Origin: a virus
Taxonomy: Duplodnaviria; Caudoviricetes
Direction: 5' to 3' (one strand)
IMG/VR virus record: IMGVR_UViG_3300034071_000801
Coordinates: 1-64,000 of that record
Length of the DNA stretch: 64,000 nt
Shown here: in pieces, positions 1-60,556 of the stretch
Layout of the letters: each line of letters opens with the position of its first letter
Numbering within the stretch: position 1 is the stretch's first letter
The notes under the pieces: model-generated
What the model was told of the DNA's origin: nothing
Seen by the model: only the letters and a program-made list of their open reading frames with translations
Databases searched by the model: none
Translations under genes and position numbers: made by a program

Positions 1-3000
1 GCTAAACTTGCAACGCTATCTGAACAAGATAGAAAGTTTGTAAAAGATCTTGATATAATTCTTCCTCATAACACTATGGATGTTGGTGGTAGACAATATG
101 TTTCTTTATCTGGAACTAGAACAGCTGATGGTAAACAACTTATTTCAAATAGACTATCTGGATATGCTACAGCATTTGTGGATATTGCTAACAATCCATT
201 TATTACTAAGGTTGTAAAAAGTGATGTTGTGGTGTCTACATTTATGTTTTTAGAATCTATTGGTGCAGGAAACACAGGAGTGATCTTTTTAAATCAACCT
301 ATTATAGAAAAGTATTTAGAATACTTAGATAACACAGGTTCTAAAAGTGTAACTAATAAAGGTAATATAGGATATATTAAAAGTTTATTTCCTACAACAG
401 GGAAAGCATTAGAAGATGTTGAGATATCTGTAGAGCAACTTCTTGACAATATAGAAAACTATGGTAAAACTGGTATGTTTGATGCTCTTAAAAATGCTGA
501 ACAACATTTAATATTAGATGAGTTTATCAAATATAAATTATTAGCAGATCAATTGTTTAGCTATACACAAGCTACAAACTATGACACAACAAGATTTGGT
601 AGTTCAGATGCTCTTCTTAAAAAAGAATGGGGAACATTCAATGCTAGTAATTTTAATCTAATATCTAATGTAAATGATGTATTAGGTAATACATTTATTG
701 GTGAACAAGCTGAACTTTTATCAAAATCATTTGGATCTTTTGGTGCAATTATGAAATCAGAACTTCCTGAAATCAAAGCATACACATTATCTACATTGAA
801 AAGATATGCTACAAGAAAATATATGTCTGCTGATGACTATGAGAAGATAGCTAACTTAATCAAAAATTCTTTCATAGATTATGTTATACAGAATAACACA
901 GTTATGACAGATATGATTAAACCTTTACTTGTAGATTCTGAAACAGCAGTGGTTGATCAATTAGAGAAAGCTAAACAAAAATATCCTTCTATACAAATAC
1001 TACAAGATCTTAGTCCTGTACTAGGAAATAGAGATGGATCTGCTAAATCTATAGAATTAAAAGCAAATGTGAAAGATGCATATAGTGAAAACTTATATGT
1101 AGGTATGATGAGAGAGTTAAGAGATGCTAGTCCAGAACTTAATGATCTTTATAATAACATTGTTAATGTAGCTATTCTACAAGGAACAACACAATCTGCT
1201 ATATCTATAAGAAACATTATTCCTGTAGAAGATTATGCAGCTAAGATAGCTCCTATTATAAATCAACTTAAAGCTAACAGTAGTCTTAAAGCTTTTGAGA
1301 ATGGAATATTTGAAAGAAACAATTTTGCAAACAAAGATGTATTCACTGAGTTTAGACCATATGTACACACTCCTCAACCTAATCCTGATACAGGAGAGTA
1401 TAATGAGAAGAGTGTTAGAATGAATCCTAATACAGGAGAAGATGAATTAATTTACTTCTTACCAAGTTTCAAAGCAATGAGAGGTGTTACACAAACATCA
1501 AGAAAATTAATTGTATTAAATGATGAGTTTAATTCATTTCAGTTATCTTCTGATTTCTTAAAGATCCCTAAAGTGGTAACTAATAAAGAGGGATTAAAAA
1601 TTAATATTACAACTGGTCTTGAGGTAACTAAAAAAGATTATGCATTGATGAAACAAAAAGGTTCACAAGATCTTTATAATGCATACTATTATAAAAAAGT
1701 GTACACTAATGAAGTGGATGAATTTAATAATCCTATTCCATTAAAAACATATAATCAAAAAATTAAAGCTTACGAATACTATTATAAACAAATCAATGTA
1801 TATGGTGATGGTAATAGAGCTGTTGAAATAAACAAAGATTTCAAACCTTCTGTTATTGATAATGGAGGTATGCCAATTCAAGAAGAATTGAAAGATGCTG
1901 ATATTGTTAATGCATTTTCTGCACAGGGTCAAGAAGAAGTTGCTCCTACATCTTTACCAACAGAAACACCTATAGAAGTTGTAACTACTCCTACACAAAA
2001 ATTGAGTGGAGAAAAAATAAATATCTACGCAGGTACAGGAGAGAATGCTGAATTAAGTAATTTTGCTGTTAGACCTTTTAAAGCTACAGATGATACACAA
2101 ATAGGTGGAGCTTATATAGATGCTACAGGTAAAGACATTACTTTCAAAACTGTTGAAGGATATTATCAAGCTAGTAAACTTATATATTCAACTTCTTCTG
2201 AGTATTGGACAGAAAAAATGGATTTAACAAATAAAGGAATAAAACTCATAGAACAATTTGCAAATGCTACTGGAGCACAAGCTAAATCTTTAGGTAGAAC
2301 TGTAAAAGGTTTAGACATTAAAGATTGGGATGATATTTCTTCTGCTGTAATGTATGATGGTTTAAAAGATTCTTTTGAACAAAATCCAGAAGCTCTTAAA
2401 AAACTTCTTAATACAGGTAATGCAGAATTAACACATACACAAGATAAAGGTAAATGGGGTAAAGAGTTTCCAAGAAGACTTATGGAAGTAAGAGAAGAAC
2501 TTAGACCTACACAAATTGCAACTAAAGAAGTGAGACCTAGATTTGAAGTGTATGGAAATGAAGTTCAATATACTGAAGATGGTTCAACTGCTCAAGAATA
2601 TAATAGTCCTGAAGAAGCTCAAGAAGGATTGAAAGAATGGTTAGCGTTAGATAATCAATCTATAACTGAAGAAGTTTCTGTAGAAGAACAAACTAATAAG
2701 CCTTCTATATTTGATTTAAGAAATGTACAAATTGGTTATACATCAGGACAAACAAAAGCATTAGAAGAAATATCTAAGTTAATTGATAGAAAAGCTGATG
2801 GTCATTATTTACTAGCTGGATATGCTGGTACAGGAAAAACAACAATAGCTGAGAACATAGCAAAATATGCTAAACAAGCAGGGAAAGCTATACTAGTTAT
2901 TGCTCCTACAAACAAAGCAGCTAAGGTGTTAAATGATAAACTAAAATCTACTGGTGTTGGATCTGTAGCTTCTACTATACATAAGACAATATATGGTGAA

Positions 3001-4236
3001 CCTAATGATCAAGGAGAGTGGGAGAAAAGTAGTGACATTAAAAACTCTGTAATCATAATAGATGAATCTTCTATGATTGAGAAATCATTAATGGCAGATT
3101 TACTAGACTCAACTAAGAATAAAAACAATGTGCTCATCTTTATGGGAGATAGTTATCAGTTACAACCTGTAGGTGAAGACTCTGGTTTATTCCAAGGTAA
3201 AGTGCAAGAAGTTAAAAATGACCAAACAGAGTTAACAGAAGTTAAACGTCAGTCTTTAGATAGTAGTATTTTAAAAGTGGCTACAGTTATTAGAAATGAT
3301 AAAAAATCATATGTTCCTACAGAATCTACAGAAGATTTTAAAGTGACAAAATCTAAAAATGAATTTGTTAGTAACTTTAAAGAAGCTGTAAAAGCTAATG
3401 AAGATGTAGCAATGATTGTTGCTACAAATAATGAAAGACTGTTGATGAATAAATTAGCAAGAAATGCTAAGTTTGGTGAAGCTTCTGAAAATGTATTAAA
3501 CCCAGGTGAAACAATTATCTCTATAGCTAACTCTTCTGATTATTCAAATTCTGAAGTGTTTAATGCAAAAGATGTAAGAGGTGAACCAACTAAATTTGAT
3601 ATAACATTTACAGATAACTTTGGAAAATCTAGTAAGTATGATGTATATTTAGCATTTGTAGTTAACAATGAAGGAGTAGAAGTACCTACACTATTCTTAC
3701 CTAATGTAGATAAACCAAGTATATATCATGCACAAATATTAAAAGCTGCTAGAGAGAGTAGTCCAGGACTATATAATGCTTTAAATAACTGGATAATGAA
3801 TACTAAGAAAGGACCAAAACTAAGTCCAGCTATATCAATTGCTACTTATGGATATGCTATTACAGCACATAAGTCACAAGGATCACAATGGAAAAAAGTA
3901 TTTGTTAATCAAAACTATGTAGCTGATTCATGGGATGCTGCAAGATGGTTCTATACAGCTATAACAAGAGCAAGTGATGAAGTGGAAGTTTTACCATCAT
4001 CATCTAATGTGCAGATATCTAATGCTGAAATAGACTCTAAATTAAATGCAATTGTACAAGAAGGTGTTGAAACATTTGATACAATAAAAGATTTTTCAAA
4101 TGATCAGAAGCAACAAATTTTAACTAACTTTGCTGCTAAACATAAAATGACAACTGCTCAAGCTAAATTATATATTGATAATGCTTTAGCTGAGAATAAA
4201 GAAGAAGTAATTAATAAACTAAAAGACTGTTACTAA
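1..4236 (+). CDS. Giant virion protein, 5'-partial; probably the C-terminal part of a crAss-like virion RNA polymerase, with NADAR and Dda/RecD-like SF1B helicase modules
   Basis: Frame is open from base 1. ISNRLSGYATAFVDIANNP resembles a crAss RNAP segment. NADAR motifs LSNF..TVEGYYQASK..AKSLGR..FEQNP..LLNTG..LMEVRE lie at ~2014-2503. Helicase motifs GYAGTGKTT, IIDESSM, GDSYQLQPV and YAITAHKSQGSQW lie at ~2740-3990. Confidence 0.65.
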   Translation, partial: AKLATLSEQDRKFVKDLDIILPHNTMDVGGRQYVSLSGTRTADGKQLISNRLSGYATAFVDIANNPFITKVVKSDVVVSTFMFLESIGAGNTGVIFLNQPIIEKYLEYLDNTGSKSVTNKGNIGYIKSLFPTTGKALEDVEISVEQLLDNIENYGKTGMFDALKNAEQHLILDEFIKYKLLADQLFSYTQATNYDTTRFGSSDALLKKEWGTFNASNFNLISNVNDVLGNTFIGEQAELLSKSFGSFGAIMKSELPEIKAYTLSTLKRYATRKYMSADDYEKIANLIKNSFIDYVIQNNTVMTDMIKPLLVDSETAVVDQLEKAKQKYPSIQILQDLSPVLGNRDGSAKSIELKANVKDAYSENLYVGMMRELRDASPELNDLYNNIVNVAILQGTTQSAISIRNIIPVEDYAAKIAPIINQLKANSSLKAFENGIFERNNFANKDVFTEFRPYVHTPQPNPDTGEYNEKSVRMNPNTGEDELIYFLPSFKAMRGVTQTSRKLIVLNDEFNSFQLSSDFLKIPKVVTNKEGLKINITTGLEVTKKDYALMKQKGSQDLYNAYYYKKVYTNEVDEFNNPIPLKTYNQKIKAYEYYYKQINVYGDGNRAVEINKDFKPSVIDNGGMPIQEELKDADIVNAFSAQGQEEVAPTSLPTETPIEVVTTPTQKLSGEKINIYAGTGENAELSNFAVRPFKATDDTQIGGAYIDATGKDITFKTVEGYYQASKLIYSTSSEYWTEKMDLTNKGIKLIEQFANATGAQAKSLGRTVKGLDIKDWDDISSAVMYDGLKDSFEQNPEALKKLLNTGNAELTHTQDKGKWGKEFPRRLMEVREELRPTQIATKEVRPRFEVYGNEVQYTEDGSTAQEYNSPEEAQEGLKEWLALDNQSITEEVSVEEQTNKPSIFDLRNVQIGYTSGQTKALEEISKLIDRKADGHYLLAGYAGTGKTTIAENIAKYAKQAGKAILVIAPTNKAAKVLNDKLKSTGVGSVASTIHKTIYGEPNDQGEWEKSSDIKNSVIIIDESSMIEKSLMADLLDSTKNKNNVLIFMGDSYQLQPVGEDSGLFQGKVQEVKNDQTELTEVKRQSLDSSILKVATVIRNDKKSYVPTESTEDFKVTKSKNEFVSNFKEAVKANEDVAMIVATNNERLLMNKLARNAKFGEASENVLNPGETIISIANSSDYSNSEVFNAKDVRGEPTKFDITFTDNFGKSSKYDVYLAFVVNNEGVEVPTLFLPNVDKPSIYHAQILKAARESSPGLYNALNNWIMNTKKGPKLSPAISIATYGYAITAHKSQGSQWKKVFVNQNYVADSWDAARWFYTAITRASDEVEVLPSSSNVQISNAEIDSKLNAIVQEGVETFDTIKDFSNDQKQQILTNFAAKHKMTTAQAKLYIDNALAENKEEVINKLKDCY

Positions 4237-55100: not shown

Positions 55101-55649
55101 TTTACTGTTTTACCATCTTTGGCACCAGTAATTTGATGTAGCCTTTTAATCTTACCACTGGTGTAGTAGATTACAATGTCTTTCACATTATCAGCATTGA
55201 ATACAACAGTGATTTCTGATTGTACCCATGGTTGTAATACACCTTTCTCTTTAGTAATATAAGAGGTGTATTTCTTAACAAATGTATCTTGTGCAGATAC
55301 TGTTATGCTCAATGTTAGTAGAGCTCCTAATAATAGTTTTTTCATAATCTATTTATTTACAGATTTAGGTGTACACACATGTCCATCACTCCATTTGATT
55401 CCTGGAGGTGGTGTTGTTTCTGATGAGCTGTATTTTGTACCACACTCACTACATTCAAATTTATTCATCTGATGCTAAAAATAATGTTATTATAAAAGAT
55501 ATAAACATATAACCTCTAACTACTCCCCATTCAATATTCACTGGAAGAATGCTCCATGTTATAAAACATGCTATTAGATATATAAATAAACAAATAGCCA
55601 ATGGTAGTGTTATAAAAAATCCTAAATAAATACTACAAAACTTTTTCAT
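52145..55649 (-). other. Array of small early-type hypothetical genes (52145-52501, 52503-52802, 52805-53110, 53107-53373, 53377-53673, 53676-53909, 53915-54151, 54157-54396, 54393-~54602, 54604-~54969, 54971-~55327, 55461-55649)
   Basis: Tightly packed, co-oriented ORFs of 60-130 aa. 53107 and 53377 are paralogues; 54971 has a signal peptide. Confidence 0.7.
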
Positions 55650-55714
55650 AATTTCTTTTGTTAATGATTAAACAATTAGGCTCCTGCTATTACACAAGAG
55701 CCCTTTTGCCCTCC

Positions 55715-55861
55715 TTAATAACCCAACTGATGAAGTTGGTTTATATTGGCTTCTACAATATACACACCCTGTGATATTGTACATGCAAACGCTATACTCA
55801 TTGCGAATGCTAATTGTCTGAACTGATAAAACTCAGTTGGTTTCATTTGAATTGTTTTCAT
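55715..55861 (-). CDS. Small protein (48 aa), not in the ORF track
   Basis: MKTIQMKPTEFYQFRQLAFAMSIAFACTISQGVYIVEANINQLHQLGY, preceded by the TCCTTAATAA leader motif. Confidence 0.55.
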   Translation of the reverse strand: MKTIQMKPTEFYQFRQLAFAMSIAFACTISQGVYIVEANINQLHQLGY

Positions 55862-55891
55862 TGTTATTTATTATTAAGGATTAATACATAA

Positions 55892-55922
55892 TAAGAAAAG
55901 CCCCTATGTTAATAGAGGCTTT
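55892..55922 (-). terminator. Terminator closing the RNA operon
   Basis: Minus strand reads AAGCCTCTAT-TAAC-ATAGGGGCTT-TTCTT. Confidence 0.7.
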
Positions 55923-55925
55923 AAT

Positions 55926-56078
55926 AGGACCTTCTCCCTTGGGAGATGTCAATTGTTGAGATTAGGAACATTTCTTCCCTATAAGTACTCAACTCCTTCT
56001 CTGCGTGGAAAGGACTTAACATTCGTGATGTGCAAACTATCCAATGTCTGTTACTGTGCTATTTGCGTCAAGTAACTG
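55926..56078 (-). ncRNA. Candidate ~150-nt structured RNA
   Basis: No ORF; several consecutive stems between the tRNA-like element and the terminator. Confidence 0.4.
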
Positions 56079-56081
56079 CTG

Positions 56082-56150
56082 TGATTGAGACAGGATTCGA
56101 ACCTGTGTGTAAGGATATATGTCCATCGCATACCATTCTGCCACTCAATC
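56082..56150 (-). tRNA. Degenerate tRNA with undetermined anticodon
   Basis: Acceptor stem GATTGAG/CTCAATC, T arm ACAGG-TTCGAAT-CCTGT, D loop with GG; the anticodon loop is only 6 nt (CATATA). Confidence 0.75.
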
Positions 56151-56171
56151 TAGTGGAGGTGGGGAGATTCG

Positions 56172-56873
56172 CATTTTGTTAATAACTTGTTGTCACATTA
56201 TTTGCATATGTCTAGGACATGTTGTAGATTTACACCATATCTTAAATTCTTTATCATGACACTACAATACCTTTCTGGATTCTTTGATGCTGATGGTTCA
56301 ATATCAATGAGTAAAAGTTCTAAAAACGATACTTACAAATGTATCAAAATAGATTTTACTAATACTTACATAACAATTCTTGAAGAGATTCAAAAATACT
56401 TGTTAAATGAGCATGGTATTAAAACACATATATCAAAAAAAGCAATTAGAAAAGAAAACCATAATATTGGTTATTCTTTATCTTGTAATAGTAATCAAAC
56501 TTGTTTGAAACTTTGTAAACTTATAGATTCTCATCATCCTAAGAAGTTACATCGTATAAATACAATTTTGAAATATCATGATGCAGTTACCATAAGAAAT
56601 GGTAAATACACAGATAAACAAGCTACAAGAAGATTAGCCTACGAGAGACTATTCTTTCTTCCTACATTTCTGTAGGGATCGGACTATATCATCATCTGTT
56701 CTAGATGTTGCTTACTGTGGGCTCACCGTAGTGTCCCTAGTCTCTGAACCTTCTCACTTCTTCCAGTGAGCTTGGCTGCTGATTGGCATATTACCCTCGC
56801 AGGTGTAACTTAGCGTTCCAGCAATTCAAGCAATTTTTAATTATACATCCCTGTATAATGAGTCCAATTTCCA
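56172..56873 (-). mobile_element. Group I intron (702 nt) in the tmRNA T-loop
   Basis: P1 GAGUU/GACUC with U.G at the splice site; terminal G at 56172. P AATTGCTGGAA (56826-56816), Q AATCAGCAGC (56784-56775), R GTTCAGAGACTAG (56749-56737), S GATATAGTCC (56690-56681). Confidence 0.93.
56256..56675 (+). CDS. Single-motif LAGLIDADG homing endonuclease, antisense to its host intron
   Basis: QYLSGFFDADGSI. Start moved to ATG 56256; lies in the post-S (P9) region of the intron. Confidence 0.88.
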   Translation: MTLQYLSGFFDADGSISMSKSSKNDTYKCIKIDFTNTYITILEEIQKYLLNEHGIKTHISKKAIRKENHNIGYSLSCNSNQTCLKLCKLIDSHHPKKLHRINTILKYHDAVTIRNGKYTDKQATRRLAYERLFFLPTFL

Positions 56874-57186
56874 AACTCCCGTGTTGCTTACTTCAAAAAT
56901 ACAATTTTATACAGCTTATTTAGGGTCAAGCTAGGCTTAACGTTCCCACCACTCTATTTAATCTAATAGAGAAATCTTGAGGTAATTTAGGCTGCTAAAC
57001 CAACGATTACATCCTCATTCAATAATGAGAATACTTTGTTCATGTTAGCTTCGATTTGTGCGTTTGCTCCTAGAGCCACTACACGACTTGTGTTTTTGCC
57101 ATTTAAAATAATTCACCTTAGTTTACAGTTATCTCTCTGGCTGAATTGTATAATCTATAATAACCAGTCAATTCCAGTCACCCCCA

Positions 57187-57775
57187 TTTCCCTCGTGTGA
57201 GGGCATGTATCAATTGTTGTGTTGTTGACCAATGATCAACTTGTATTAGCACCCATCATTATAGCCTTGCAAGTTAGCCCTCGCTGCTTACTTAATGATT
57301 AGGGTCACGTAGTTAATAATACAGTTTGCAGACTGTTAAAGTATAAAATTACAAAAATTACACTTATTAACTACTTGCTTGGAACTCATTTGTGTTGTGA
57401 CAAAGTGGCTTAAAAGCTTAGTCCAATCTCTTTCCTTTCTCAAGGGAACAACACATCTACCATTACTGATAGTATCTTTATGTAATGTTTAGTATTTACA
57501 CTGTATTTAAGCACAGGATTATTTCATTACAAAGGTATTCAATGTTTAGCCTGTTTGAGAGTTTATTCATTGCAACTCACAAGTGTTCCCTAACATCAGA
57601 GACCAATCCTACAAGTTTAATGTGTGTGGATGTAGGACCACATTCTTTTGTATCACTCTAGTGAGTTTAAAACTCATAATATGCATAATATAGGTAAGTT
57701 CAATGATACGCAGCACATACATTGACTATTTAAACTGCTATGTGGCGTTTATAGTCCCCAGTGATTATACAATAT
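57187..57775 (-). ncRNA. Candidate large (~590 nt) structured non-coding RNA
   Basis: No ORF of 60 aa or more on either strand; more than ten stems, GNRA tetraloops on the minus strand, its own promoter, and it abuts the tmRNA 5' end. Confidence 0.65.
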
Positions 57776-57780
57776 CCCTG

Positions 57781-57812
57781 CAAATATAATCTACAGGGAG
57801 TAACAAAACAAA
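57781..57812 (-). promoter_or_regulatory. Promoter TTTG-N20-TATATTTG driving the RNA operon
   Basis: Full Bacteroidota consensus; the -7 element sits inside the CCCTG..CAGGG inverted repeat. Confidence 0.7.
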
Positions 57813-57824
57813 TAATTAATCAAA

Positions 57825-59216
57825 TTATAATTTAATTTGTTGTTCACCTACACCTTTAGCATAGCTGAACACTTCCAATTCTTCTGTCACCTTAATCTGT
57901 TTACCATCTGTCTCAAGACAAAGATCTCTCAACTCATCACTAAATTGCATTAATGATATGGCATTCACTTTATAAGGAAACTTCTCTGTGTTGATATCAT
58001 CTTGACCATCATTGATGATTAAGATCTCTGGCTTCTCTTCTGATAAATCAATATCAAGATTGTGAAGCTTACGATCAGCTATCTCTTTAGCTACATAATT
58101 AACCATATCACCAATTTCTGTTCCTCCACCATTAGGATCATTAGAGAATGTTTGCCAAAATGCAATTACATCTTCTCTATCCTTTATGTGTTTGAACTCT
58201 AAGTCTTCTGGATTATGTACAAAATAACTAAAGAACACTTCAGCTTCACCTCTCATAACATACTTGAATCTGTCTATTAATATAGCATTTACCCAAATCT
58301 GTTTCTCTTCTTCATTCATACTACCAGAATAATCTAATAGAATGATAATCTTCTGAATCTGCTCTTTTCTATCAACAGGAACATTCACTGTTAAGTCTTT
58401 AGTTAAGAATTTAGTTCTGAAATTAGGAAACATCTTCTGATATAATGGCATCATGTGTATTTGAGCATAATCTCTCATAATCATTGTTGCATATTGATCA
58501 GAATTAGCCACTATCTTCTCAGATATCTCTTTCTCCACCTTAAACTCATTACCAAACTTACCAACAAGAGATATATGATTCATAATCTCCATCTTCTTAT
58601 CCTTGCTTAGTTCATTTAGATCTAATTGTTCATTGATATCTGGATCAGAATAAAGACTTCTATCAAAATCAAATGTTTTTGTTGGATCCACTTCATCATC
58701 TTCATCATTATCATCTTTTTCTTTACCAGATGATTCTTTAAGCTTCAGATAGATAGCAATAGCTTGTTCAAGAGGTGTAAATCCTGGAACATATTGTTCA
58801 TATACAGCATCAAGCAAAGGTTTCTTCTTTAGATATTCTCCTTTGTCTTCATCAGATAAATTATCTACATCTTTATACTTATCAGCTATATATTCTGTTT
58901 CATCAATCATCTTGAAATAGCACACACGTGCTAACTCTTTGATCAAATCAATAGATGCTTGCTTCTTAACACCTCTCACCTTAGCTTTGATGTCTTTAGC
59001 ACTTGGTGTTAGATAATTGACTGGATCTTTAACAAATAGATCTTCATCATTATCTTCATATGATACAACAAATGAGAAATTAGACCAAGAACTCTTGGAC
59101 CATCCACTACCACCATATTTACTTTTCCAGCCTCCACTACTCTTCTTAGGAGTATAGGAAGGGGCATAATAATCACCGTAGTAATCATCATACCCATTAT
59201 CCCATAAACTTGCCAT
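57825..59216 (-). CDS. VWA (MIDAS) domain protein, partner of the MoxR ATPase
   Basis: LLDYSGSM, GGGTEI and LIINDGQD. Confidence 0.85.
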   Translation of the reverse strand: MASLWDNGYDDYYGDYYAPSYTPKKSSGGWKSKYGGSGWSKSSWSNFSFVVSYEDNDEDLFVKDPVNYLTPSAKDIKAKVRGVKKQASIDLIKELARVCYFKMIDETEYIADKYKDVDNLSDEDKGEYLKKKPLLDAVYEQYVPGFTPLEQAIAIYLKLKESSGKEKDDNDEDDEVDPTKTFDFDRSLYSDPDINEQLDLNELSKDKKMEIMNHISLVGKFGNEFKVEKEISEKIVANSDQYATMIMRDYAQIHMMPLYQKMFPNFRTKFLTKDLTVNVPVDRKEQIQKIIILLDYSGSMNEEEKQIWVNAILIDRFKYVMRGEAEVFFSYFVHNPEDLEFKHIKDREDVIAFWQTFSNDPNGGGTEIGDMVNYVAKEIADRKLHNLDIDLSEEKPEILIINDGQDDINTEKFPYKVNAISLMQFSDELRDLCLETDGKQIKVTEELEVFSYAKGVGEQQIKL

Positions 59217-60556
59217 TATATGAATGAAGCAATTTGAAGGTTCTTAGCAAACTTATCCATAGCTTGTGTAGCAGCTTTCACTAATTGTGAATGTATTTGT
59301 GCAATATCATCACTCACTGCTAATCCTTTGATGTCTGTCAATTGTTTAGTAAGATCACCAAGAGCATCTCTGTACATCTTCTCATCATCTCTAGATACCA
59401 ATGGTAAATGAGTTAGAGTTTCAATACTGAATGTAAGAGATGCAGATAAATCTCTGAACTTAATTGTAGCCTCAAACTTCTTAATAGCTTCAGCTATCAA
59501 TGATGGTTTCTTAGAGAACTCAGCAATAAAGCTTAATGATTCTGGTCCACATTGGTCATACACTTGATATGCTGTTACAGCTACACGTGGACTAATTGTA
59601 ATACCATTCTTTGCATACTCTTGTAACAAATAAGGAATCACTGGATCCACATTGTCTACACCAAACTTACTTTCTAGTAATTTGTTGTAGCTGATCTCTG
59701 TGTAATTATCCCAGATAACATTCAATTCAAGAGGAAATCTTTCCATCAATGCTTTCAATGACATATTCTTTGAGAATTCATCACGAGTTCTATTAGTACA
59801 ACAGATGATGAATTTAGTCTCAATAGGAAATATCTGTGTACCATTTCTAAATGTACCACTTGATAATATATCCTTTAATTGCTCTAAGATGAAATCAGGA
59901 GCATCAAACATCTCTTCGAATATAACAAAAGGATGATTCATAAATGAATTCTCTACAAGATATTCTATTTTACCTGTCTTCTCAAACATAGGTATATCAA
60001 GACCACCAAACAATCTATCTGTTGTCATACCTGTACCCATTGTAATAACATAAGGTTCAATACCTTTTGATTTTAGAAAATCAAGTGTCATTTCTGATTT
60101 ACCATGTCCTCCTGGACCATATAAAACTACATTTTTACCTGTTTGAAACCCTACATTAAGGACATTTACTGTTTTGTCCATAAATACGAACTTCTCTGCT
60201 ACTGGATTTGCTTTTGCTGATTTCTTTACTTGTGTTGCCATTGTTTTTTCTTTTGTTATTAAGGAATTGTTTAATTTAATTTGTTCTAATACTTCTTCTA
60301 TGTTTACTTCTTCTATTTCTTTGATGATACAATTGTTTGATCGGAACACCCAACCATTTATTTCAAATGTATCATCTCTCTCAATGTATTTAATGAATTT
60401 ATCAGGAACCTCTTGTTCCATATAATCATTCATATCACCACCTTCAGCCCATTCATCTGGTATATCATATTCATCATTCCAAAGACCATCATCTTTAAAC
60501 TCTTGTTCACTTTTAAATCTATATTTACTCATAGCTTTGATATAAAAGAGAGCCAT
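59216..60556 (-). CDS. MoxR/RavA-like AAA+ ATPase with an N-terminal extension (probable internal start at 60241)
   Basis: LYGPGGHGKS, IFEEMFDA, CTN and ALMERFP. Confidence 0.85.
   Translation of the reverse strand: MALFYIKAMSKYRFKSEQEFKDDGLWNDEYDIPDEWAEGGDMNDYMEQEVPDKFIKYIERDDTFEINGWVFRSNNCIIKEIEEVNIEEVLEQIKLNNSLITKEKTMATQVKKSAKANPVAEKFVFMDKTVNVLNVGFQTGKNVVLYGPGGHGKSEMTLDFLKSKGIEPYVITMGTGMTTDRLFGGLDIPMFEKTGKIEYLVENSFMNHPFVIFEEMFDAPDFILEQLKDILSSGTFRNGTQIFPIETKFIICCTNRTRDEFSKNMSLKALMERFPLELNVIWDNYTEISYNKLLESKFGVDNVDPVIPYLLQEYAKNGITISPRVAVTAYQVYDQCGPESLSFIAEFSKKPSLIAEAIKKFEATIKFRDLSASLTFSIETLTHLPLVSRDDEKMYRDALGDLTKQLTDIKGLAVSDDIAQIHSQLVKAATQAMDKFAKNLQIASFI

Follow-up and report, generated by a model that had tools for sequence, protein, structure and literature searches.

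A phage RNA island with an intron-split tmRNA, a non-decoding tRNA-like element and a widespread large structured RNA, and its proposed punctuation by tRNA-like ends

The transfer RNA (tRNA) gene cluster of phage T4 encodes eight working tRNAs together with two co-transcribed stable RNAs of unknown function, and murine gammaherpesvirus 68 produces units of tRNA and microRNA (miRNA) in which a cut at the 3′ side of a non-decoding tRNA-like fold releases a downstream small RNA. Genes for transfer-messenger RNA (tmRNA) whose T-psi-C loop holds a group I intron were reportedly described by Williams in 2002. In plant mitochondria, t-elements are tRNA-like folds that have been proposed or shown to direct ribonuclease (RNase) P and RNase Z (PMC1920247). 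Among the RNAs of phages, ROOL and GOLLD are large, elaborately folded, often encoded near tRNA genes, and can be very abundant; in the accounts of both, their function is given as not known (bioRxiv 10.1101/2024.12.08.627333; PMC12286853). Here, an island of stable RNAs is described that lies at positions 57812 to 55892 (minus strand) of a 64,000-nucleotide stretch of phage DNA (the window), which is the first 64 kb of the 111,404-base IMG/VR virus record IMGVR_UViG_3300034071_000801 (rated 97% complete). The island comprises a large structured RNA, a tmRNA split by a group I intron, a tRNA-like element, and several smaller modules, and it is probably transcribed into one leftward precursor that the tRNA-maturation enzymes of the host cut apart. 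L-numbers denote loci of relatives and other phages used for comparison, 29 of which were brought in by a query with the VWA-like protein encoded next to the island. The parts are, in the direction of transcription:

57781..57812, minus strand: promoter-like site TTTG-N20-TATATTTG (pattern match; conserved in relatives)
57642..57775, minus strand: leader, the transcribed part of module A, ~135 nt, with hairpins (11 unique near-full-length copies aligned)
57556..57641, minus strand: module B1, an 86-nt three-hairpin element (10 unique copies)
57242..57555, minus strand: large multi-helix ("ornate") RNA, ~314 nt, helices P1-P8 (covariation in alignment A2, 65 unique members)
57186..57241, minus strand: module C, the tmRNA 5′ leader, 56 nt, two hairpins (10 unique copies)
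57185..56154, minus strand: tmRNA, both exons plus intron, split in the T loop
56874..57185, minus strand: tmRNA exon 1, with acceptor 5′ strand, tag frame, pseudoknot region, and the 5′ strand of the T stem with UU (called by ARAGORN once the exons were joined)
56172..56873, minus strand: group I intron of 702 nt, interrupting the T loop after U2 and before C3 (Rfam RF00028)
56256..56675, plus strand: LAGLIDADG homing-endonuclease open reading frame (ORF), 139 amino acids from ATG, inside the intron after P9 and antisense to it (Pfam)
56154..56171, minus strand: tmRNA exon 2, with T-loop CGAAU, the 3′ strand of the T stem, acceptor CACCUCC, and discriminator A
56153..56151, minus strand: 3-nt spacer CTA (CUA) between tmRNA and tRNA-like element
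56082..56150, minus strand: tRNA-like element, 69 nt (fold; Rfam tRNA 47.9 bits, cut-off 29)
55980..56081, minus strand: module R3a, a three-hairpin RNA of ~100 nt starting at the base after the tRNA-like discriminator (13 unique copies)
55892..55979, minus strand: module R3b, a hairpin plus intrinsic terminator (terminator scan; 5 unique copies)

A preliminary description of this DNA had listed four RNAs, the first of ~590 nt and the last a structured RNA of ~150 nt. Four is an undercount, as at least six conserved modules were discerned. The supposed ~590-nt RNA (57812..57186) is a composite whose modules are present or absent independently across 22 related islands, and only 57555..57242 is the large structured RNA. 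The last RNA is structured as stated but actually consists of the ~100-nt three-hairpin module followed by a hairpin and the terminator, 190 nt in total. Within R3a, 4 of the 27 predicted pairs are changed on both sides among the 13 unique copies; the R3b terminator is an 11-bp stem (55922..55897) followed by a U tract, and its stem shows compensatory changes across the five unique copies. What was confirmed is this terminator-like hairpin, the CTA spacer, the degenerate tRNA (the Rfam tRNA match at 56150..56082, with a 6-nt anticodon loop), the tmRNA with its intron (called by ARAGORN after joining the exons, by an Rfam group I intron match, and by the intronless alleles of L015 and L004), and the lack of a sense-strand protein gene between the elements: no minus-strand ORF within 57812-55892 exceeds 37 amino acids.

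The tmRNA, the tRNA-like element, and R3a are co-oriented and separated by only 3 nt and 0 nt, respectively. In 11 of the 13 unique copies (eight flagged by script; L006, L114, and L003 added by eye from the same output), R3a starts at the base after the discriminator A of a tRNA-like element or tmRNA, irrespective of whether the upstream element is a tmRNA (L006, L114, L063, and L068) or a tRNA-like element. In other phages, the 5′ edge of the large RNA lies within ~5 nt of the 3′ end of a tRNA or tRNA-like element in 7 of 65 members (L032, L046, L075, L102, L105, L118, and L123), and its 3′ block, GGGUGCUAA, reaches to within ~12 nt of the 5′ end of a tmRNA or tRNA-like element in 6 of 65 (L006, L032, L059, L063, L088, and L126). 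Both the layout and the idea of punctuation are reasonable proposals that gain support from comparison at the 3′ side of the island, and co-transcription combined with tRNA-style punctuation is plausible as judged from sequence. We infer a single transcript, the enzymes that act on it, and the sequence of steps. The transcript would run from the promoter-like site 57812..57781 to the terminator 55922..55897 as one leftward precursor. Cleavage by RNase P would generate the 5′ termini of the tmRNA (57185) and the tRNA-like element (56150); the three-hairpin RNA would be freed 3′ of the discriminators (56154 and 56082), either by an RNase Z-type cleavage or by 3′ trimming. The predicted products include the leader with the B1 hairpins, the ~314-nt multi-helix RNA, the 69-nt non-decoding tRNA-like element, and the ~190-nt 3′ RNA.

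Such an operon would resemble the T4 tRNA cluster in being a stable-RNA-only phage operon cut by host tRNA-processing enzymes (the cutting being proposed here), but its anchors are a tmRNA and a non-decoding tRNA-like fold instead of eight working tRNAs, and the RNA that accompanies them is far larger and is one of a widespread family. With the units of murine gammaherpesvirus 68, it would share a viral non-decoding tRNA-like fold whose 3′ cut (again proposed here) frees a downstream RNA; there, however, the virus is eukaryotic, transcription is by RNA polymerase III, and the products are miRNAs. As in t-elements, the fold of the window's element is non-canonical, the T arm conserved (GGTTCRANYCC), the acceptor stem paired, and the ends would meet those of the neighbors; t-elements as described flank organelle mRNAs with mapped RNA ends, whereas here the neighbors are noncoding phage RNAs whose ends are deduced from module edges (PMC1920247).

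According to sequence comparison, the large RNA represents a widespread, previously uncatalogued phage RNA family. An exact 21-mer from it was found in 101 IMG/VR stretches, and IMG/VR yielded 65 unique full-length members of 266-509 nt. In their alignment (A2), invariant blocks (UAAACAUUGA, CUUGAGAAAG, AAUGAGUUCUCAGCAAGUAG, ACGUGACCC, and GGGUGCUAA) are set between variable hairpins. A nine-helix model of 41 pairs leaves 93.7% of the cells paired, compared with 32-47% when the partners are slid; both partners vary in 26 of the 41 pairs, and no shuffle out of 500 came up to any of five measures. A covariance model built for the core (R1) matched 57365..57484 with 118.3 bits, the sole copy in the genome, and also found divergent copies in L030, L010, and L020. 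It found no match in the phages FpV4 (L002) and Calle_1 (L001). The former, a Flavobacterium phage, contains ~1.4 kb without annotated genes (L002:1098-2505), followed by an unannotated tmRNA (Rfam 58.2 bits).

Searching all 4227 Rfam families (gathering threshold on the window, E ≤ 10 on 55400..58400) returned the intron, the tRNA, and chance-level hits only, and the large RNA was without match in Rfam 15. Likewise, blastn of the 314 nt against 50,697 GenBank phage records gave no match, and among species-representative prokaryote genomes, the 21-mer occurred in only three contigs, all metagenome-assembled and probably of phage origin. No prior description was found in the literature; an IMG/VR catalogue of 10,006 candidate RNAs, the motifs of which lie in supplements outside this comparison, may list the large RNA or a piece of it unnamed (PMC10690425). 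A likeness to RNase P RNA, T-box, 6S RNA, or signal recognition particle RNA was unsupported by any Rfam hit. Pairing of the P1 loop (CAUU) with AAUG in a pseudoknot was likewise unsupported, as both sides are invariant and the UGAACAUCGA variant (L008 and L014) lacks compensation.

All tRNAs and tmRNAs called by ARAGORN within 2.5 kb of the large RNA are on its strand (93 non-redundant loci, of which 15 have a tmRNA and 22 a tRNA), and 19 of the 65 members have one within 100 nt. By context, its nearest analogues are ROOL and GOLLD: it is phage-borne, lies beside tRNA genes, and is abundant in RNA-library contigs as measured by contig depth; unlike these RNAs as described in the sources cited above, it is smaller (266-509 nt) and has no sequence or structure match to them, so that by these comparisons it is a member of neither family. 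The ROOL model RF03087 found nothing in the genome, but gave nothing in its control genomes either. A role tied to translation or tRNA handling is our best guess, made by analogy because the context resembles that of the ornate phage RNAs beside tRNA genes.

Several variations on the large RNA were observed. In L062, L079, and L121, two large RNAs are arranged head to tail; copy 2 starts ~5 nt after the GGGUGCUAA of copy 1, and the second copy was also placed ~190 nt after the first copy. A sub-family (e.g., L088, L124, and L062) has an expanded domain, starting with UAAUCCUGAAUUGACAGGAU and ending with GGAGUAAUCCUAG, in place of the small P3 hairpin (A2 columns 164-319). A conserved module of ~50 nt (AAUAGCUAAGCUGUGUAAAGCACCAGAUCUGAUAAACUGUGUGAAGCU) lies directly 5′ of the large RNA in 7 of 65 members (L005, L006, L007, L033, L054, L057, and L082). 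In L004 (8824-9470), an ORF of 161 amino acids, by eye an HNH-type homing endonuclease, sits inside the large RNA directly after helix P3 and is followed by a second, divergent P3-P4-P5 core, an arrangement that suggests insertion driven by the endonuclease together with co-conversion, or possibly an intron that escaped detection.

The interval between the VWA gene and the conserved ORF of 48 amino acids (55715-55861), the downstream neighbor of the island, ranges in 22 related phages from 80 nt (L009) to ~4.3 kb. In L009 (7392-7473), these 80 nt are all that separates the two genes and contain no RNA genes; the whole island is therefore dispensable. In other relatives, homing-endonuclease and lipoprotein genes are inserted between the modules. 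For transcripts, the evidence consists of contigs assembled from four metatranscriptome runs, not of reads. These contigs cover most of the island, and bins without coverage, among them much of the endonuclease region and the VWA gene, should not be read as silent. Short contigs with the most conserved 50 nt of the large RNA (57432-57485) have depths of ~1,000-4,000 each, whereas contigs on the flanking VWA gene have a depth of at most 12. Depth from contigs adds up relatives and measures expression poorly, so that it is taken only as a sign that the large-RNA family is abundantly represented in RNA. Contig joints at 56106/56171 and 57478/57681 stem from relatives with other arrangements.

The strongest rival, which we nonetheless consider rather unlikely, is that the locus is a hot spot of independent mobile RNA genes, each with its own start and stop, where tRNA-like folds release no neighbors. 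It would account for the range in island length, for the shuffling of modules and the protein genes inserted between them, for large RNAs that stand alone elsewhere with promoter-like or terminator-like flanks, and for core contigs of the large RNA that are much deeper than those of neighboring parts. It does not sit well with the window itself: simple scans of the minus strand of the island revealed no internal promoter-like or terminator-like sites, terminator-like sites being confined to its two ends (57799..57775 and 55922..55897) and the full promoter-type motif occurring once, at the start. Moreover, the 0-3 nt that separate tmRNA, tRNA-like element, and R3a are too few to hold signals, and the exact start of R3a after the discriminator in 11 of 13 copies would not be expected.

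Against a single precursor punctuated by tRNA-like folds, as first claimed, stand a number of observations that have to be set beside the short spacers, the R3a starts, and the large-RNA edges. For 46 of the 65 large-RNA members, no tRNA-like neighbor was detected within 100 nt, which is an undercount because the window's own split tmRNA is missed in this way, and just one of the 10 copies of B1 borders a tRNA-like end. Separate promoters or terminators between the elements had been named beforehand as evidence to the contrary; scans found none within the island here, but the large RNA has its own terminators in L039, L091, L104, and L122, and its own promoter-like block in L108, where TATATTTGCAGGGAT is fused directly to its first bases. 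Some members lead into a protein gene. The proposed comparison of synteny among related phages likewise cuts both ways, as module edges coincide with tRNA-like ends, but the modules move, and are present or absent, independently. The greater depth of the large-RNA core contigs fits higher stability or separate transcription alike. The promoter claimed for the island exists as a motif at 57812..57781, but its class is not enriched in the window (TTTG-N20 type, 4 found vs 2.64 expected; TANNTTTG alone, 113 vs 94.7), for which reason its status as a promoter is only presumptive. The minimum-free-energy fold of the single large-RNA sequence is not more stable than those of shuffled sequences (z = -0.63), so that the case for its structure rests on covariation. 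Finally, among RNA-library contigs, no RNA end or splice junction of this phage was seen; the only contig end resembling a junction differs in its acceptor stem and may be that of an intronless relative.

In the tRNA-like element of the window, a 7-bp acceptor stem, a D arm, and a canonical T arm are all present, and the discriminator is A. In place of the anticodon arm, the element has a 6-nt loop (CAUAUA) on a stem with a U-U mismatch, rather than a 7-nt loop on a 5-bp stem. ARAGORN did not call it, while near-identical copies in L005 and L019 were reported as "tRNA-??? (ta)". When the comparison loci were searched with D-arm and T-arm motifs alone, leaving the acceptor stem unused, 44 unique elements were retrieved. 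All seven acceptor pairs form in 35 of them and six of seven in another 3; when the 3′ strands were dealt at random, ~14.6 of 44 reached six or more pairs, compared with the 38 observed. At least six different, mutually complementary acceptor stems occur, and the discriminator is A in 40 of 44. Lengths range from 69 to 183 nt, with 34 of 44 elements longer than 92 nt and the window's copy the smallest, minimal form; several copies of 101-112 nt are scored as tRNA by Rfam. Identical middle parts occur on two different acceptor stems (L104 and L027), and several copies can occur in one phage (L032 and L090). The element is not an isolated decayed tRNA; by sequence, it is part of a family whose tRNA "top half" is conserved and whose middle is hypervariable. 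A remnant of a phage attachment site (attP) was dismissed as a reading, since the element has both acceptor strands and these covary.

This family raises the question of whether the element is itself an active tRNA mimic, i.e., a chargeable or CCA-tagged decoy or a scaffold for variable inserts, directed for instance against tRNA-targeting host enzymes. We regard this as unlikely, yet it can coexist with processing of a common precursor. The retention of acceptor stem, D arm, T arm, and discriminator A (40/44) throughout the family would suit a mimic, as would the wide variation of the part replacing the anticodon arm (69-183 nt in total, 34/44 above 92 nt), its occurrence on two acceptor stems, and the multiple copies per phage. 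However, there is no anticodon loop to decoy anticodon nucleases, and a pure decoy would have no need to lie at module edges. It is very improbable that everything except the tmRNA is a functionless, decaying remnant of a tRNA array and lost genes: the defective anticodon arm, the HNH gene within the L004 large RNA, and the absence of the entire island from L009 could be read in this way, but compensatory changes in the large RNA, R3a, B1, and the acceptor stems, blocks invariant across 65 diverse large-RNA members, and the presence of the parts in RNA-library contigs speak against it.

On the raw window, ARAGORN made zero calls; after joining 57185..56874 and 56171..56154 by script, it called a tmRNA of 331 nt. 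Its tag, encoded by 57067..56987, is ANAQIEANMNKVFSLLNEDVIVGLAA followed by a stop (26 residues), with a resume codon and an end of hydrophobic residues plus Ala-Ala, and is similar to the tags of relatives. In the tRNA-like domain, the acceptor 5′ strand GGGGGUG pairs with CACCUCC (7 bp, with G3 opposite U), followed by discriminator A; CCA is not encoded. The T arm, GGGAG-UUCGAAU-CUCCC, forms after exon joining. The Rfam tmRNA model did not match the window because the intron interrupts the gene, whereas intronless relatives scored 49.9-90.2 bits (cut-off 47). Exon 1 is 76-99% identical to the tmRNAs of relatives and to those of Flavobacterium and Cellulophaga phages, and of the 29 loci retrieved by means of the VWA protein, 14 have an intronless tmRNA according to ARAGORN.

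The intron matched RF00028 at 56883..56660 (minus strand; 94.8 bits, cut-off 50, model positions 1-253), which corresponds to the catalytic core P1-P9. The exon base preceding it is a U paired with a G in P1, its last base is a G, and splicing restores the 7-nt T loop UUCGAAU. The intronless alleles fix the junction and, thus, the limits of the intron (56873..56172): that of L015 reads GGGAGTT directly followed by CGAATCTCCCC, and its tmRNA CACGGGAGTT CGAATCTCCCCACCTCCA without a break, while the tmRNA of L004 equals the spliced window sequence at 318 of 331 positions. The endonuclease ORF matched LAGLIDADG_3 (39.2 bits, cut-off 22.5) and LAGLIDADG_1 (30.6 bits, cut-off 23.1). The same intron and ORF are also present in L013 and L016, the ORF DNA being 89% identical. 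From a relative comes an RNA-library contig of 516 nt that links exon 1 to the intron.

A tmRNA database paper lists 883 intron-form tmRNAs and reports the T-loop subsite between bases 2 and 3 ("position 3") from the class Bacteroidia only, and a LAGLIDADG gene after P9 in 4 of 23 gene-bearing tmRNA introns (PMC11915505). The tmRNA described here is, thus, a phage-borne member of an already known kind: position 3, the U before the intron, the last base G, the restored UUCGAAU, and the LAGLIDADG gene after P9 are all as in that paper's account (PMC11915505); described for this copy are, in addition, its location in a phage and the antisense endonuclease ORF. According to the Rfam alignment, P1 pairs with GGAGUU of the T stem and loop. 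That the intron gates maturation would follow from this sequestering but is speculation, and sequestering of the T arm by P1 is generic to every tmRNA with a T-loop intron. Elsewhere in relatives (L019:2985-3049 and L021:7257-7321; also L030), the VWA gene is broken after about residue 405 by an insert of ~1.1 kb, a 64-nt stretch of which is 86% identical to the core of the window's intron; this insert is probably a second group I intron, located in a protein gene.

At the 5′ end of the island, the motif TTTG-N20-TATATTTG, which we take to be of the Bacteroidetes -33/-7 promoter type, overlaps the hairpin (57799..57775) that follows the VWA gene, and nearly all related islands begin with this block in conserved form. 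A scan for sigma-70-type promoters was uninformative (14 sites vs 20.3 expected). Counted from the VWA stop codon, positions 1-183 constitute a conserved module of promoter and leader; the leader precedes either lipoprotein genes or RNA genes in relatives, the module being followed by lipoprotein genes in L004, L015, L008, L021, L026, L030, and L031, and in L003 the leader is joined straight to module C. In L004 (7574-7606), a borderline Rfam match to DUF805b (36.7 bits, cut-off 35.6) lies at the end of this module, before the inserted lipoprotein genes. Of the 21 predicted pairs of B1, 3 are changed on both sides (10 unique copies); B1 is located 5′ of the large RNA in the window and 3′ of the tmRNA in L014, L019, and L024. 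Module C lies directly 5′ of the tmRNA in all 10 unique copies.

Upstream of the island and on its strand lie the adjoining VWA-like gene (57825-59216, weak sub-threshold matches) and a MoxR-type AAA gene (59216-60556; Pfam bpMoxR, E 4.9e-13), a pair that recurs 5′ of the RNA island in many loci. The only other match to the tRNA model in the phage genome is outside the window (74949-75022, plus strand, 61.3 bits). The sequencing runs holding this stretch are lake, river, and other freshwater metagenomes. Since the tmRNA part is 76-80% identical to tmRNAs from 29 records of Flavobacterium psychrophilum phages and 9 of Cellulophaga phages, the host is probably a member of the Flavobacteriia. When the whole island was compared with the GenBank phages by blastn, only pieces of tmRNA and intron matched, and no deposited phage of that collection covered at least 80% of it.

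New here are the large RNA family and the tRNA-like family with the variable middle. A role of the island in translation control or anti-defence, as suggested before, is speculation. It is doubtful, if conceivable, that the large RNA forms a new, abundant "ornate" class and that the tRNA-like elements are natural scaffolds (the constant top half serving processing and stability, a hypervariable insert replacing the anticodon arm), which together with the tmRNA would make up an RNA-only toolkit acting on host translation or on tRNA-directed defences. Irrespective of function, a large, strongly covarying RNA family common in uncultured freshwater phages is a fresh target of the ROOL and GOLLD kind for RNA structural biology. 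The occurrence in a phage of a "position 3" T-loop intron, so far reported from Bacteroidia only in the account cited (PMC11915505), suggests that phages may move tmRNA introns between hosts. Finally, tRNA look-alikes at the borders of RNA genes make tRNA-style punctuation of RNA operons in bacterial viruses directly testable.

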